Source: Pyrinomonadaceae bacterium (GTDB taxonomy: Bacteria > Acidobacteriota > Blastocatellia > Pyrinomonadales > Pyrinomonadaceae). Taken from it: a stretch of DNA of 64,000 bases. Under the pieces are notes generated by a model. The model ran no database searches, was not told the origin of the DNA, and saw only the letters and a program-made list of their open reading frames with translations. Position numbers and translations under genes: made by a program. Location of the stretch: the NCBI GenBank assembly GCA_050250045.1, contig JBFWPK010000014.1:20841-84840 (forward strand), read 5' to 3'. Shown here piece after piece: positions 15,358 through 59,249 of the stretch; position 1 is the stretch's first letter; every line of letters begins with the position of its first letter.

Positions 15358-15446
15358 AATTTCGTTTTGAGTTAAGTTATAGGTTAAGTTCTATTGTGTC
15401 AAGTACATTGGAACGGGGTCGCCGTTCAGTTCGAAAGGAGCCGCAT

Positions 15447-15520
15447 GCACAAGCCCGCACGAAGTAAGGGCGATATGTCCAACGTCCTAGATATCGCCCT
15501 TACTTCGTTCGGGCTTATGC
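15447..15520. repeat. family C palindromic element (about 74 bp)
   Basis: GCACAAGCCCGCACGAAGTAAGGGCGATAT ... ATATCGCCCTTACTTCGTTCGGGCTTATGC, a near-perfect inverted repeat in the divergent intergenic region. Confidence 0.85.
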
Positions 15521-15571
15521 AAGAAGTGCCAGGTGAAAGCGCGCATTGGATCGTGAAGAGGCCCATACAAT

Positions 15572-27674: not shown

Positions 27675-29131
27675 TCGTCAATGTCCTTCAAATCTAGAAT
27701 CACTTCTTTGATATCTATTTCAGCCACGCTTTCAGTGTTCGCACAAACCTGCATTAAAAACCGATCCTGAGCGTTTCCTTTTTCTTTCGCTACAGAATAC
27801 GGCAGATCTTCGCGGAATGTGACCATCGAATATTTCGAGAAATAGTCGGGAAAGGTTTGCTCCAGTTTCGTTTCGAGTTCGCGTTTACGTTGGAAAACCG
27901 GGTCGGCGGTGGCATCTCGCATTTCGTAGAAATTTTCCTCGGCCATGTCGGCTATGGCATCCGTATTTATCTTGCGTAGTTGGCCGTACTTTTCGAACAC
28001 AAATTCCCAATCAACTATAGGCCCAGTCGCTACCGCTCCCGGTTGTGACAAGAGCGAGTCGAGCACGCGGACGTCTTCAAAGGCGCAGTTCATCCCCTGT
28101 CCGTAGAACGGAACGACGGCGTGGGCCGAATCGCCGAGGAGCAGCACCTTGCCTTCGACGTTCCACGGCCAGCATTTAACGGTGCCCAGGTTGCCGGTCG
28201 GGTTGGTGAAGAAGTCTTCGACAAGCGTCGGCATGAGCGGAACGGCGTCGGGGAATTCGCGGGTGAAGAACTCTCTCAGCGAAGACTCATCGTTAAGGTC
28301 CTCGAACGACGGCTCGAAGGCGGAAACACGAGCGGTAGTGAGTGTGTCGTCCGCGGGCGACGCAGAAGAGACACCCTCGCTACCGCTCAGGTTTCCGCCT
28401 GTGTGGGCAAGGAACAGCGTGCAGGTGAAGCTGCCGTCGAAATTCGGCAGGGCGATCATCATGAACTTGTGCCGGGGCCAGATGTGGAGGGCGTTTTTTT
28501 CGAGTTGAAATAGATCTTTGTTCGACCCCGGCAGGACGCCGGCGTTCCGGGGAGGAATGTGAAGTTCCTTGTATCCGTGTTCGAGAAAAACCTGCGACCA
28601 CTGAAATTCAGGCAGATCGCGTTCCATCGCATCGCGTACCGCCGAACCGGCGCCGTCGGTCGCGATAACAGTGTCTCCACGGATCGTTCGACCGCTTGCA
28701 AACGACACTTCGCCGCTGGCAAGGTGGAAATCGGTACAGCGTTCGTTAAAAATAAACTGAACATTCGGATATTTCTCGGCCTCATTCATCAGAGCGATAT
28801 TCAGGCCGGCACGTGAGACCGAATTTATGTATTCGCCTTTGCGGCCGCTGTAGGGGAGCAGTTTTGTTTCGCCAGTCAACGTGTGGATCATTCGCCCGTA
28901 CATCGGCACGGCCTCGGCCAGCATGTATTCATCCATCCCGACCGCGCGCAACGCCGCGATGCCGCGGTCGGACAGAGCGAGATTGATCGAACGCCCGGCA
29001 GCAATAGCTTCGGTTCGCATATCAGGCCGCGCCTCAAAGACGTTGACCGCCATGCCGCGACGAGCGAGATAGATCGCGAGCAGCGAACCTGCAAGCCCAG
29101 CACCAATGATAATCACTCTTTGCTCAGGCAT
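27662..29131 (-). CDS. kmo: kynurenine 3-monooxygenase
   Basis: 489 aa. FAD motif IIGAGLAGSLLAIYLARRG, then DGAGSAVR and LLGDSAHAVVPFYGQGMNCAFED. Carries two in-frame repeat insertions. Confidence 0.92.
   Translation of the reverse strand: MPEQRVIIIGAGLAGSLLAIYLARRGMAVNVFEARPDMRTEAIAAGRSINLALSDRGIAALRAVGMDEYMLAEAVPMYGRMIHTLTGETKLLPYSGRKGEYINSVSRAGLNIALMNEAEKYPNVQFIFNERCTDFHLASGEVSFASGRTIRGDTVIATDGAGSAVRDAMERDLPEFQWSQVFLEHGYKELHIPPRNAGVLPGSNKDLFQLEKNALHIWPRHKFMMIALPNFDGSFTCTLFLAHTGGNLSGSEGVSSASPADDTLTTARVSAFEPSFEDLNDESSLREFFTREFPDAVPLMPTLVEDFFTNPTGNLGTVKCWPWNVEGKVLLLGDSAHAVVPFYGQGMNCAFEDVRVLDSLLSQPGAVATGPIVDWEFVFEKYGQLRKINTDAIADMAEENFYEMRDATADPVFQRKRELETKLEQTFPDYFSKYSMVTFREDLPYSVAKEKGNAQDRFLMQVCANTESVAEIDIKEVILDLKDIDECLG
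28020..28049. repeat. family A element inside kmo
   Basis: GGCCCAGTCGCTACCGCTCCCGGTTGTGAC, translated as QPGAVATGPI. Confidence 0.85.
28319..28399. repeat. family B inverted doublet (81 bp) inside kmo
   Basis: GGCGGAAACACGAGCGGTAGTGAGTGTGTC - 22 nt - ACACCCTCGCTACCGCTCAGGTTTCCGCC. Encodes residues 245-271 (GGNLSGSEGVSSASPADDTLTTARVSA). Confidence 0.88.
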
Positions 29132-29140
29132 CGGTATTTA

Positions 29141-29221
29141 GGCAGAAACACGACCGGTAGGGAGTGTGTCGCTTCCTTTTTCGCCGTCACGGGCACACTC
29201 GCTACCGCTCGTGTTTCCGCC
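29141..29221. repeat. family B inverted doublet in the kynU-kmo intergenic spacer
   Basis: GGCAGAAACACGACCGGTAGGGAGTGTGTC (29141-29170) - 23 nt - CACACTCGCTACCGCTCGTGTTTCCGCC (29194-29221). Confidence 0.88.
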
Positions 29222-33722: not shown

Positions 33723-33796
33723 TGCAGAAGCCCGCACGAAGTAAGGGCGAAATGCGAGGTTGAACGTATCGCCCTTACTTCGTGCGGGCTTCTGCA
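33723..33796. repeat. family C palindromic element
   Basis: TGCAGAAGCCCGCACGAAGTAAGGGCGAAAT ... TATCGCCCTTACTTCGTGCGGGCTTCTGCA, 9 nt after the CocE stop. Could act as a terminator. Confidence 0.85.
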
Positions 33797-43029: not shown

Positions 43030-43524
43030 CTAAGGTTCAAGCGGGAGTTCTCGATCAAGAATAATACGCAAAAATTCGTCTGGTCTGACAATCGTAAGAT
43101 GCCGCAATCGCTGTCGGAACTGCTTGCTTTCGACGTCAATTCCCGTCATTAGATCGAGCAAGTCGCGATCGGATGTGACGAGATATGCAGCTTCAATCGC
43201 AGCCGCGAGGTTCAGGTATGGTTCGTCATCCGAATCCCGCGGGAGAGTTGCAACCGATGGGACTTTCTTGACTAGCGTTGATTCGGAAATAATCTGTCTG
43301 ACAAAGTCTTTCGCATTCTCAGAAGAATAGTTCGGAAACCTCGCGAGCGTCTCTTCCCGCGTCAGAACATCGAGAAGTTCCTCGACAGTTTCCGTGCTGA
43401 CGAAATGTTCGACTAATTTGTCCTGTATCAGCCGCCGGCATTCACTTCCTAACCCGTTTCCAAAAAAGAACGCTCGCCAAAGTACGTTGCAATCATAGAC
43501 TACCCGAAATCTATGTTCCGCCAT
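43030..43524 (-). CDS. PIN-domain toxin (PIN_3/TIGR00305-like)
   Basis: 164 aa. VVYDCNVL...RDSDDEPYLNLAAAIEAAYLVTSDRDLL. Confidence 0.75.
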   Translation of the reverse strand: MAEHRFRVVYDCNVLWRAFFFGNGLGSECRRLIQDKLVEHFVSTETVEELLDVLTREETLARFPNYSSENAKDFVRQIISESTLVKKVPSVATLPRDSDDEPYLNLAAAIEAAYLVTSDRDLLDLMTGIDVESKQFRQRLRHLTIVRPDEFLRIILDRELPLEP

Positions 43525-43784
43525 TAATCTTCACGGCGAGCATCGCTACGCTCCTTACGTACCTGCCGAAGTACTCCGTTCATGAATGTATCCAACTCCT
43601 CCTCGGAAATCCCGCTCTCAGAAACGGTACGTCTCAAAGGCTCTAGCTGCTCGTCAAGCGAGCGTCGTCGAACATCGCGTTTGATCAGGGACTGAAGATA
43701 CACATCCAACTCGACACCCTCCAAAGAGGCGGCTTTTCGCAAGAGTTCTTCAGTTTGCGGGTCAAGGTCAACAGCTACAGTCAT
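43524..43784 (-). CDS. putative antitoxin of the PIN toxin
   Basis: 86 aa. Its stop overlaps the toxin start (ATGA-type junction). Confidence 0.5.
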   Translation of the reverse strand: MTVAVDLDPQTEELLRKAASLEGVELDVYLQSLIKRDVRRRSLDEQLEPLRRTVSESGISEEELDTFMNGVLRQVRKERSDARRED

Positions 43785-44050: not shown

Positions 44051-45592
44051 TCAGATGCCTGTCAGTTTGACGCAAACGTTCTTTTCTTCCGTGAAAAATC
44101 TCAATGCCTCGAAGCCGCCTTCGCGGCCGAGGCCGCTGTCTTTCATGCCGCCGAACGGGGTTCGCAGGTCGCGGAGGAGCCAGCAGTTTATCCAGATGAT
44201 GCCGGATTCGAGTGCGGCTGATACGCGGTGTGCGCGCGAAAGGTTTTCGGTCCAAACGGTTGCCGACAGGCCGTAGCGGACGCTGTTTGCGTAGCCCAGG
44301 ACCTCGTCTTCGGTGTCGAAGGGCATTATTGTGACGACCGGGCCAAAGATCTCTTCGAGGTTTGTACGGCAATCGTGCGGAAGATCTTCTATCACGGTGG
44401 GTTGGATGAACCAGCCGGTGAGTCGTGACTGCTCATCGGGCACACTCCCTACCGGTCGTGTTTCCGCCTTTTTTTCTCTGCGTCTTTGCGACTCTGCGGG
44501 AAGATCTACCGCTTTCCCGCCGCACAATATTGTGCCGCCTTCGCTCTTTGCAAGTTCGATGCATGACGTTATCTTGTCAAAGTGCTGCTTTGAAACTATC
44601 GCACCGACATCGGTGTCGGCATCAAGAGGATCGCCGACTTTTAAGGAAGCAACGCGTTCGACAAAATCGCGTTTGAATTTTTCATATATCGGCCGCTCGA
44701 CAAATATCCGCGAACCGCAGAGACAGATCTCGCCTTGATTTGAGAACGATGAGCGGACGGTAGTCGATAGCATTTGCTCATAATCGCAGTCGGCGAAGAT
44801 AATATTCGGATTCTTGCCGCCGAGTTCGAGCGAAAGTTTCTTGAACATCGGAGCCGCCGTGCGGGCGATCTCCTCGCCGGTCTTTGTGCCGCCTGTGAAT
44901 GAGATCGCCTTGATATCCTTATGAGCAACGATCGCCGAGCCGACCTTTGGGCCCGTGCCGTGGACGATATTCAAAACGCCCTCTGGGAGACCGGCCTCGA
45001 TGCACAGCTTAGACAGCATATAAGCCGTCATCGGCGTGACCTCGCTCGGTTTGGCGACGACCGTGCATCCGGCCGCCAGAGCCGGTGCAATCTTCCACGT
45101 AAAGAGATAGAGCGGCAGATTCCACGGCGAGATGCAGCCGGCGACGCCCATTGGCTGGCGAAGTGTGTAGTTGATCGCCTTAACACCGCCGGGCAGTGAA
45201 GTATCGTGTGATTCGTTTGCCACGTGTATCGCGGCGGTTGCATAAAATCGGAAATTCGCCAGTGCACGCGGAATATCGACAGAGCGCGCCAGCGAAACCG
45301 GCTTGCCGTTATCGACACTTTCGGCCATGGCCAGATCGTCCAGATCACGCTCGATCAGCGTTACCAGTCGCATCAGCGTTTCAAATCGATGTTCAGGCGG
45401 CGTAGCGGCCCACGCCGGAAACGCGGCCCGGGCGGCATCGGCCGCGAGATTGACGTCGCGATCGTCCGAGTCAGGGATCAGTGAATAGACGCGGCCGGTG
45501 GCCGGCTCAAAATTGTCCAGATATTCCGCGGAAGCCGGCGACACGAGTTCGCCGCCAATATAATTTTCGATCGTGAGCATATTTTGAAGCAA
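44051..45592 (-). CDS. NAD-dependent aldehyde dehydrogenase (candidate 2-aminomuconate-6-semialdehyde dehydrogenase)
   Basis: 513 aa. ELGGKNP and FSNQGEICLCGSR catalytic-Cys region. Contains an in-frame family B repeat insertion. Confidence 0.88.
   Translation of the reverse strand: MLQNMLTIENYIGGELVSPASAEYLDNFEPATGRVYSLIPDSDDRDVNLAADAARAAFPAWAATPPEHRFETLMRLVTLIERDLDDLAMAESVDNGKPVSLARSVDIPRALANFRFYATAAIHVANESHDTSLPGGVKAINYTLRQPMGVAGCISPWNLPLYLFTWKIAPALAAGCTVVAKPSEVTPMTAYMLSKLCIEAGLPEGVLNIVHGTGPKVGSAIVAHKDIKAISFTGGTKTGEEIARTAAPMFKKLSLELGGKNPNIIFADCDYEQMLSTTVRSSFSNQGEICLCGSRIFVERPIYEKFKRDFVERVASLKVGDPLDADTDVGAIVSKQHFDKITSCIELAKSEGGTILCGGKAVDLPAESQRRREKKAETRPVGSVPDEQSRLTGWFIQPTVIEDLPHDCRTNLEEIFGPVVTIMPFDTEDEVLGYANSVRYGLSATVWTENLSRAHRVSAALESGIIWINCWLLRDLRTPFGGMKDSGLGREGGFEALRFFTEEKNVCVKLTGI
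44441..44468. repeat. family B element inside the aldehyde dehydrogenase gene
   Basis: CACACTCCCTACCGGTCGTGTTTCCGCC. It lies within an extra segment of about 24 aa (ESQRRREKKAETRPVGSVPDEQS) just before the conserved GWFIQPTV. Confidence 0.85.
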
Positions 45593-45827: not shown

Positions 45828-46002
45828 GATCAGTGGGTAGTGGGTCAGTTTGAAATCGAAATTGGTTCAACTGCACAAGCCCGCACGCAGTAAGGGCGAT
45901 GTCCGGAACGTTGAGTGTATCGCCCTTACTGCGTGCGGGCTTGTGCACTATCCATTCTTTCCAAAATCCGCGAATTGATTTCAAGCTGACCCACTACCGA
46001 TC
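45828..46002. mobile_element. MITE-like 175-bp long inverted repeat with a family C palindrome (45872-45947) at its centre
   Basis: The outer arm GGTAGTGGGTCAGTTTGAAATCGAAATT matches the reverse complement of the other arm, AATTGATTTCAAGCTGACCCACTACC. The inner arm is TGCACAAGCCCGCACGCAGTAAGGGCGAT. Confidence 0.7.
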
Positions 46003-59008: not shown

Positions 59009-59249
59009 TGCAAAAGCCCGCTTAAGGTGCAAAAGCCCGCTTAAGGTGCAAAAGCCCGCACGAAGTAAGGGCGAAACATTCAACGCCATGCAGAAGCCCG
59101 CACAAGTAAGGGCGAAACATTCAACGCCACGCAGCGGCCCCGCACGAAGTAGGGCGAAACATTCAACGCCATGCAGAAGCCGCGCACGAAGTAAGCGGCG
59201 AAATATTCAACGTTTCGATCAAGACCTTACTACGTGCGGGCCTGAGCAT
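59009..59249. repeat. tandem array of family C half-elements closed by one inverted arm
   Basis: Two truncated units and four full units of TGCA(A/G)AAGCCCGCACGAAGTAAGGGCGAAACATTCAACGCCA (about 43-bp period), then ..CCTTACTACGTGCGGGCCTGAGCA. Confidence 0.85.

Follow-up and report, generated by a model that had tools for sequence, protein, structure and literature searches.

BIMEs of enterobacteria are clusters of different REP types which keep a fixed relative order and vary in composition between strains; they are extragenic. The class 3 TnpA-Y1 transposases are characterized by a Y----Q motif, weak atypical flanking hairpins and a 5' CnGA foot. They have been reported in Acidobacteria, where Solibacter has about 600 copies, and REPs within genes are mentioned as well (Quentin et al., 2018, PMC6006769). 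Di Nocera et al. (2013, PMC3733652) describe in-frame REPs in genes of known proteins, among which are excinuclease, UvrD and tRNA synthetases; the species concerned are Opitutus terrae, Rickettsia conorii (Rickettsia palindromic elements, RPEs), Thauera and others. Thus, intragenic REPs are already published. A full-text literature search for a link between Pyrinomonadaceae or Blastocatellia and REP, RAYT or REPIN retrieved no paper. The locus presented here adds what is probably selfish DNA of the REP type inside essential and metabolic genes of a phylum for which no such description was found in the papers searched, and it connects family B with a little-studied group, the class 3 Y1 transposases, as its most likely mobilizers. 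Its most interesting aspect is that the same loop of one enzyme holds many different repeats across a bacterial family.

The window is a stretch of 64,000 nucleotides from a Pyrinomonadaceae bacterium, an acidobacterium from soil. Its source genome, termed G000, comprises 4.32 Mb in a draft of 45 contigs. The pertinent features are listed in Table 1.

Table 1. Coordinates of the aldehyde dehydrogenase (ALDH) gene, its insert and related repeats in the window.
Feature	Position	Strand	Basis
ALDH gene (2-aminomuconate / 2-hydroxymuconate semialdehyde dehydrogenase type)	44051-45592	-	ORF, PDB, NCBIfam and AF2 matches
In-frame insert, 69 nt = 23 codons, DLPAESQRRREKKAETRPVGSVP	44438-44506	-	empty-site orthologues L008 and L012, PDB chains
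Family-B REP-like unit, encodes AETRPVGSVP	44437-44469	-	matches the most frequent 28-mer among the 95 copies without mismatch
A-run spacer, AAAAAA on the coding strand, separates B and C units	44470-44475	-	sequence
Family-C unit GATC-TTCCCGCAGAGTCGCAAAGACGCAGAG, corresponds to a single arm of a palindromic repeat, encodes DLPAESQRRRE	44476-44506	-	genome copies
Family-B inverted doublet inside the kynurenine 3-monooxygenase (KMO) gene	28319-28399 (arms 28319-28346, 28372-28399)		gene identified by eye
Family-B inverted doublet, intergenic spacer adjoining the KMO doublet region	29141-29221 (arms 29141-29168, 29194-29221)		repeat search

The original prediction placed a repeat of family B in frame within an intact ALDH gene. 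This holds. The reading frame is open over 513 aa from a TTG codon, and its translation includes ...GGKAVDLPAESQRRREKKAETRPVGSVPDEQSRLTGWFIQPTV... The true start is likely the ATG at 45580, four codons 3' of the TTG, which would give a protein of about 509 aa; it is preferred because it fits the orthologue consensus MxxIENYIGG more closely. The PDB matches are 2-aminomuconate-6-semialdehyde dehydrogenases (AMSDH; 7bzv, 4u3w and 4i1w) with E values from 1e-125 to 1e-140, and the top PDB and fold matches share 41-45% identity at a TM score of 0.96. NCBIfam TIGR03216 scores 557 bits, which is under the equivalog cut-off of 693. The NCBIfam equivalogs for 2-hydroxymuconic and 5-carboxymethyl-2-hydroxymuconate semialdehyde dehydrogenase score high and remain under their cut-offs. 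Consequently, the substrate assignment stays at the level of the type and is a candidate only. The catalytic residues N158, E256 and C290 are present in invariant alignment columns. The enzyme that carries the insert is conserved and apparently functional.

Comparison with solved structures localizes the extra segment. Residues 361-389 of the ALDH, 29 in number, face 7 residues in 7bzv, and the HMMER alignment splits or gaps precisely there. An AF2 model was generated from an alignment of 72 rows, a more diverse set; a model based on 47 close orthologues had a pLDDT of 54 with an unusable C-terminal half and was set aside. The model has a mean pLDDT of 89.9. In blocks of ten residues the values for residues 361-390 are 68, 54 and 55, those of the adjoining blocks 96 and 91. 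Superposed on the AMSDH crystal structures the model attains a TM score of 0.96 (normalized by target) with an rmsd of 1.8 Å and about 23 extra alignment columns. Because the pLDDT is low across the insert and the superposition is intact, the insert is read as an unstructured excursion, modeled with low confidence, from an otherwise intact ALDH fold. In the model it is bordered by two strands, one with GG at its end, the other GWFIQPTV.

A segment of about 24 aa ahead of GWFIQPTV had been noticed, and only its family B part had been recognized. The in-frame segment is indeed there; it has 23 aa, residues 365-387, and is a composite of a B unit and a unit of a further family, C. Two orthologues from the same genus carry empty sites, reading GGKQVDLDGRCADGYF (L008) and GGKQVNPDGRCTNGWF (L012), and the query, in which the stretch spanning the insert reads ...REKKAETRPVGSVPDEQ..., is 69 nt longer. 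Like the published intragenic REPs and RPEs, the insert interrupts an otherwise conserved ORF without disturbing its frame, and orthologues lack it. Read along the coding strand, the B unit is AGGCGGAAACACGACCGGTAGGGAGTGTGCCCG, i.e., a CGGA foot (CnGA) followed by the hairpin ACAC-GA-CC-GGTA-GG-GA-GTGT. Its codons GCG GAA ACA CGA CCG GTA GGG AGT GTG CCC yield AETRPVGSVP. As RNA the unit folds with -13.3 kcal/mol, z -2.6 against shuffles. A single base separates the C unit from either arm of the inverted doublet at G000:C11:85111-85170. Family C is low-copy with about 16 copies in G000 (up to 5 mismatches). In orthologues it appears as a module TAETQRRGE, and as TAETQRH...QRLSVSAV when both arms are present. 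A search around 44380-44530 detected neither a second B arm nor a target-site duplication; a GAT triplet at both junctions is uninformative.

The B arm, CACACTCCCTACCGGTCGTGTTTCCGCC, is located at 44441-44468 on the plus strand. With up to 3 mismatches four copies occur in the window, the others being 28319-28346 (-), 29141-29168 (-) and 29194-29221 (+). The near identity to the reverse complement of 29141-29168, which had been noticed at the outset, amounts to one mismatch in 28; the two remaining copies differ from the ALDH arm at 2 positions each. None of 100 dinucleotide-preserving shuffles of the window contained a match, and 0 were expected. The ALDH repeat thus belongs with the doublets at 28.3-29.2 kb in one family, as had been proposed. 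The KMO doublet corresponds to G000:C14:49159 and 49212 and is in frame within an ORF of 491 aa.

In the entire genome family B has 95 copies (up to 5 mismatches) on 25 contigs. Fifteen are identical to the ALDH copy and 39 are one base off. Conservation ends sharply beyond about 31-33 nt. The copies are arranged as singles, as convergent doublets with spacers of 20-120 nt and as tandem arrays with a period of 40 nt, and they are more often intergenic than within genes. The hairpin is composed of a foot C[A/G]GA, a stem ACAC/GTGT, a tandem G·A/A·G, CC/GG and a loop GGTA, with DNA and RNA parameters in agreement. Sister families, family A included, have the loop and the GA/GA motif in common and differ in stems which compensate. 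Across 24 unit types, collected via the loop motif SCGGTAGS, 97.2% of the cells are paired, while shuffles reach 73.2% and slid controls 25-49%, and four of the six stem pairs in this set are altered on both sides between sub-families. The short hairpin unit, the high copy number, the inverted doublets and the clusters resemble REP/REPIN-RAYT systems. Unlike in canonical class 2 REPs, GT[AG]G is absent from the foot of the B hairpin; the foot is C[A/G]GA, and GGTAG occurs only in the loop. Therefore, B fits the description of the atypical class 3 elements instead of class 2 REPs. Within the genus, B was present in 23 of 24 genomes with 1-79 copies (up to 2 mismatches); in 16 genomes from other genera of the class no copy was found. 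Family B behaves as a hairpin repeat of the REP type that belongs to this genus. In one congeneric genome (G001) the main B variant, present on many contigs, has CTAACGG in place of CTACCGG and the loop is GTTA vs GGTA, i.e., the supposedly conserved B loop varies between genomes.

A candidate for the mobilizing enzyme is encoded in G000. A Y1 gene of 172 aa at G000:C4:138680-139195 possesses the HuH motif NHAHIV and the Y----Q motif YTVNGQ. Its PF01797 score of 24 bits is just above the cut-off of 23. B units flank this gene on both sides, at 138503 and 138622 and at 139212 and 139260. Two Y1 paralogues in G000 are flanked by units of family A and by E-like units, respectively. A Y1 HuH gene surrounded by its own type of repeat, with one paralogue per repeat family, is reminiscent of REPtrons. 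JGI lists homologues of the gene as 'REP element-mobilizing transposase RayT'. The genome with its closest orthologue (G017, 84% identity) also has the highest B copy number, 79. The likeness to class 3 TnpA-Y1, judged against the published description (PMC6006769), consists of the HuH and Y----Q motifs, the weak hairpin, the CAGA/CGGA foot and the phylum. As judged from the gene arrangement alone, B is most likely mobilized by this divergent class-3-type Y1 HuH (RayT-like) transposase. Overall, G000 has 19 PF01797 matches, about 10 of them strong and IS200/RAYT-like, several forms of 200 aa and five class-3-type paralogues. In two other genomes of the genus a class-3-type Y1 paralogue is positioned directly downstream of the ALDH orthologue (G002:C207:2427-2927 next to L005; G013:C3:243950-244447 next to L008); one of these two ALDH genes has an empty site.

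The ALDH had been viewed as a further conserved enzyme with a B insert, and it is in fact one of many. For each of the 95 copies the longest stop-free frame across the repeat was determined, with at least 90 codons required from both ORF ends. By this measure 27 of the 95 copies, about 28%, reside in frame inside 21 conserved genes, another difference from the known REP/REPIN-RAYT systems. In 18 of the 21 host ORFs Pfam domains are present on both sides of the insert. These are DNA repair proteins and helicases (UvrD, UvrA, Mfd), tRNA synthetases (ValRS, CysRS, MetRS), peptidases (M1 aminopeptidase, S9 peptidase, M28 peptidase, isoaspartyl peptidase) and, further, phosphoglucomutase, the FAD subunit of xanthine dehydrogenase, an E2 acyltransferase, CopA, GcvP subunit 2, an FGGY kinase, CarA and a DUF255 protein. 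The remaining three hosts were outside the Pfam scans: KMO and a MutS2-like protein, both identified by eye only, and the ALDH, identified via PDB and NCBIfam. Two further long ORFs spanning B, at G000:C6:178679-181075 and C22:20493-21560, gave no Pfam match and were discarded as spurious. The palindromic in-frame repeats of about 10-30 residues, as singles or dimers, and the DNA repair and tRNA synthetase hosts (here UvrA, UvrD, Mfd, ValRS, CysRS and MetRS) correspond to the intragenic REPs and RPEs of Di Nocera et al. (PMC3733652); unlike those, B belongs to another repeat superfamily and another phylum.

The in-frame copies do not use the reading frames equally. AETRPVGSV is read in 13 copies, GGNTTGRECA in 7, GTLPTGRVSA in 6, AHSLPVVF in 1 and HTPYRSCF in none; the TAG-containing frame could not be scored since detection demanded an open spanning frame. 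Counting single in-frame units, 9 of 13 are in the AETRPVGSV frame (p = 1.7e-4 vs equal use of the five open frames). Either tolerance of the peptide or a bias in insertion orientation could filter the copies in this manner.

A different dimension opens when the ALDH is aligned with its orthologues. The set comprises 121 sequences, 75-100% identical to the query and, by source names, from Pyrinomonadaceae and unclassified Acidobacteriota. The loop is the sole internal region of variable length, with 27-94 residues in the segment examined, and it is expanded in 106 of the 121 (88%). By contrast, no insert was found in the orthologues from Bacteroidota, Ignavibacteria, KSB1 and Isosphaeraceae (60-76% identity), which have a short segment of 25 residues; an extra segment shared with ALDHs of unrelated taxa is thus not what is observed. 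The loops contain at least seven repeat modules, recognizable as translated repeat units: ETRPVGSV is B and DTLPDGRVSA is B in opposite orientation (in P0011, P0054 and L042), SEPGAIATGF is A, TAETQRRGE is C with QRLSVSAV as its reverse-complement reading, and further modules are SEPPASAGG and PPADAGGSD, NPQSAIRNPQL, and SVSSV and TTENTD. Multi-unit loops begin with C, continue with B, A or E and end with the NPQS type. The inserts of the A unit and of C plus B differ in position relative to the VD(L) residues. Nine genomes of the same genus comprise the two empty sites and seven different fillings. Throughout the family, the ALDH loop is thus a hot spot where many types of repeat are found. 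As in BIMEs, different REP types are clustered in fixed order with variable composition; the proposed difference is that the cluster in the ALDH is translated. In comparison with the intragenic REPs in the accessible sections of Di Nocera et al. (PMC3733652), the ALDH loop differs by its arrays of up to three or more repeat families and their rapid turnover across a bacterial family.

The age of the insert can be approached by way of its relatives. The C plus B composite is common to a subset of Pyrinomonadaceae orthologues, at the same place and in independent assemblies of other samples. P0002, the nearest orthologue examined (about 80% DNA identity), has no C unit in its loop and carries B at the same 3' junction with five changes in the 5' half. 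Since this junction is common to both, the B insertion is old; it predates the split from the P0002 lineage and is not private to G000. That an old B unit matches the consensus perfectly is mildly unexpected; it hints at gene conversion or constraint vs plain neutral decay.

Turnover at the loop involves recombination. P0033 (C plus B; L119) and P0090 (E doublet; L120) agree at about 99.5% of the first 900 nt, with 8 differences. Beyond, the loop included, identity is 65-90%, which places a breakpoint near nt 900 and demonstrates that one allele is a recombinant. A count of states on an orthologue tree (22 changes for B over 32 tips) was rejected as a measure of turnover because it was inflated, as the recombinant allele pair revealed. 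It gave way to a measure of local identity, confined to 70 residues to either side of the loop. On this scale the same modules are shared by 12 of 13 pairs at 95% or more, by 42% at 93-95% and by about 8%, the background, below. Deletion scars are visible as well: NAVTAET|LAG vs NAVTAETQRHR...PTLTG, and HQVDLTAE|KSAIRNPQL beside full forms.

We propose, with a probability of about 0.8, that selfish REP-type DNA has settled in a permissive loop of the ALDH and that the composite of 69 nt is translated as a flexible excursion. Family B would be copied via single-stranded DNA by its dedicated class-3-type Y1 HuH (RayT-like) transposase. One B unit and one C arm are neighbors in this loop, which connects the GG turn to the GWFIxPTV strand in the catalytic domain. 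With 69 nt, a stop-free frame and a loop tolerant of length and probably surface-exposed the gene would stay open, the repeats would be translated as a flexible excursion of 23 residues, and the insert would be dispensable for catalysis. Across the Pyrinomonadaceae the loop would represent an intragenic REP cluster in which several families have been gained, partly deleted and swapped by homologous recombination. A bolder version, which we consider doubtful, regards the loop as an actively targeted landing pad. Hairpin repeats of class 3 Y1 enzymes would then prefer sites beside existing hairpins in single-stranded coding DNA and generate translated 'intragenic BIMEs'; the repeats themselves would be shaped, by open frames and the hydrophilic AETRPVGSV, to survive in genes, and REPs would be a regular source of loop variation in Pyrinomonadaceae.

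Could the insert serve the cell? An extra loop, or a hairpin in mRNA or DNA, might have been co-opted for oligomer contacts, regulation, translational pausing or mRNA stability. The retention of an expanded loop in 88% of the orthologues, a perfect consensus in an old B unit, an RNA hairpin more stable than its shuffles and the preference for the hydrophilic peptide frame would all be compatible with this. Nevertheless, we consider it improbable, for the content of the loop lacks conservation. Seven or more unrelated modules occur, in both orientations and over 27-94 residues, and empty sites exist within the genus. Copies of B also occupy 20 further genes that are unrelated, and intergenic DNA has them more often still; finally, the model assigns low confidence to the insert. 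Just as little probability is attached to a history in which a few ancient inserts were passed on by vertical descent and reshuffled between alleles, with no ongoing insertion at the loop. The mosaic of P0033 and P0090, the agreement of modules in 12 of the 13 pairs with closely similar flanks and the B junction shared by the query and P0002 speak for such a history. Against it, B is present in both orientations, AETRPVGSV vs DTLPDGRVSA, at least seven module families are found, A and C plus B occupy different positions, and the C unit of the ALDH is 1 nt off other copies in G000; taken together, this requires several independent insertions.

Other explanations would have the segment absent from the protein, or from the gene. 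Mobile bypass elements, which form hairpins and reside inside coding regions, are known in yeast mitochondria, and family B is likewise a hairpin-forming mobile element within a coding region. Removal from the RNA or skipping by the ribosome (an intervening sequence or programmed bypassing) is very improbable, however. All 27 in-frame copies leave long ORFs open, and most of the hosts display Pfam domains on both sides; no split gene was identified in a plain listing of the copies between ORFs of the same strand. The insert is an exact multiple of three. The census of in-frame copies, which demanded an open spanning frame, says nothing on the TAG-containing frame. That the repeat was wrongly joined into the ALDH gene during assembly or binning has a practically negligible probability: the genome is a draft of 45 contigs and repeats often break or mis-join assemblies, but the frame is intact and the same C plus B composite occupies the same place in independent assemblies from other samples.

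For annotators and users of structure prediction, the proposed settlement of selfish REP-type DNA in permissive loops means that junk loops of 10-60 residues (AETRPVGSV, SEPGAIATG, TAETQRRGE, SEPPASAGG and similar) are to be expected in proteins from Pyrinomonadaceae. Such repeat-derived loops flag permissive insertion sites, which are useful for protein engineering, and the hot-spot loop is a natural system to measure rates of REP gain, loss and recombination.

Two other proteins of G000, a CopA-type ATPase (G000:C11:50653-53283, L026) and an M1 aminopeptidase (G000:C6:183197-186439, L022), contain many repeat-derived segments from multiple families, and their ORFs are open. These segments include four tandem RTESGSDRLP, SEPGAIATG twice, NPVAIAPGSD, and GTRTLLSATPAGAGDV twice.

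In the neighborhood of the ALDH gene another palindromic repeat family (TGCACAAGCCCGCACGCAGTAAGGGCGAT...) is located in the spacer just upstream, at 45872-45947. Its arms of 29 nt are 100% complementary and 18 nt apart, and the window has three further loci, 15446-15521, 33723-33796 and 59047-59084. Directly downstream, at 43030-43784, there are two ORFs whose stop and start overlap; by eye only, the one of 164 aa resembles a PIN-domain toxin and the small one of 86 aa an antitoxin.
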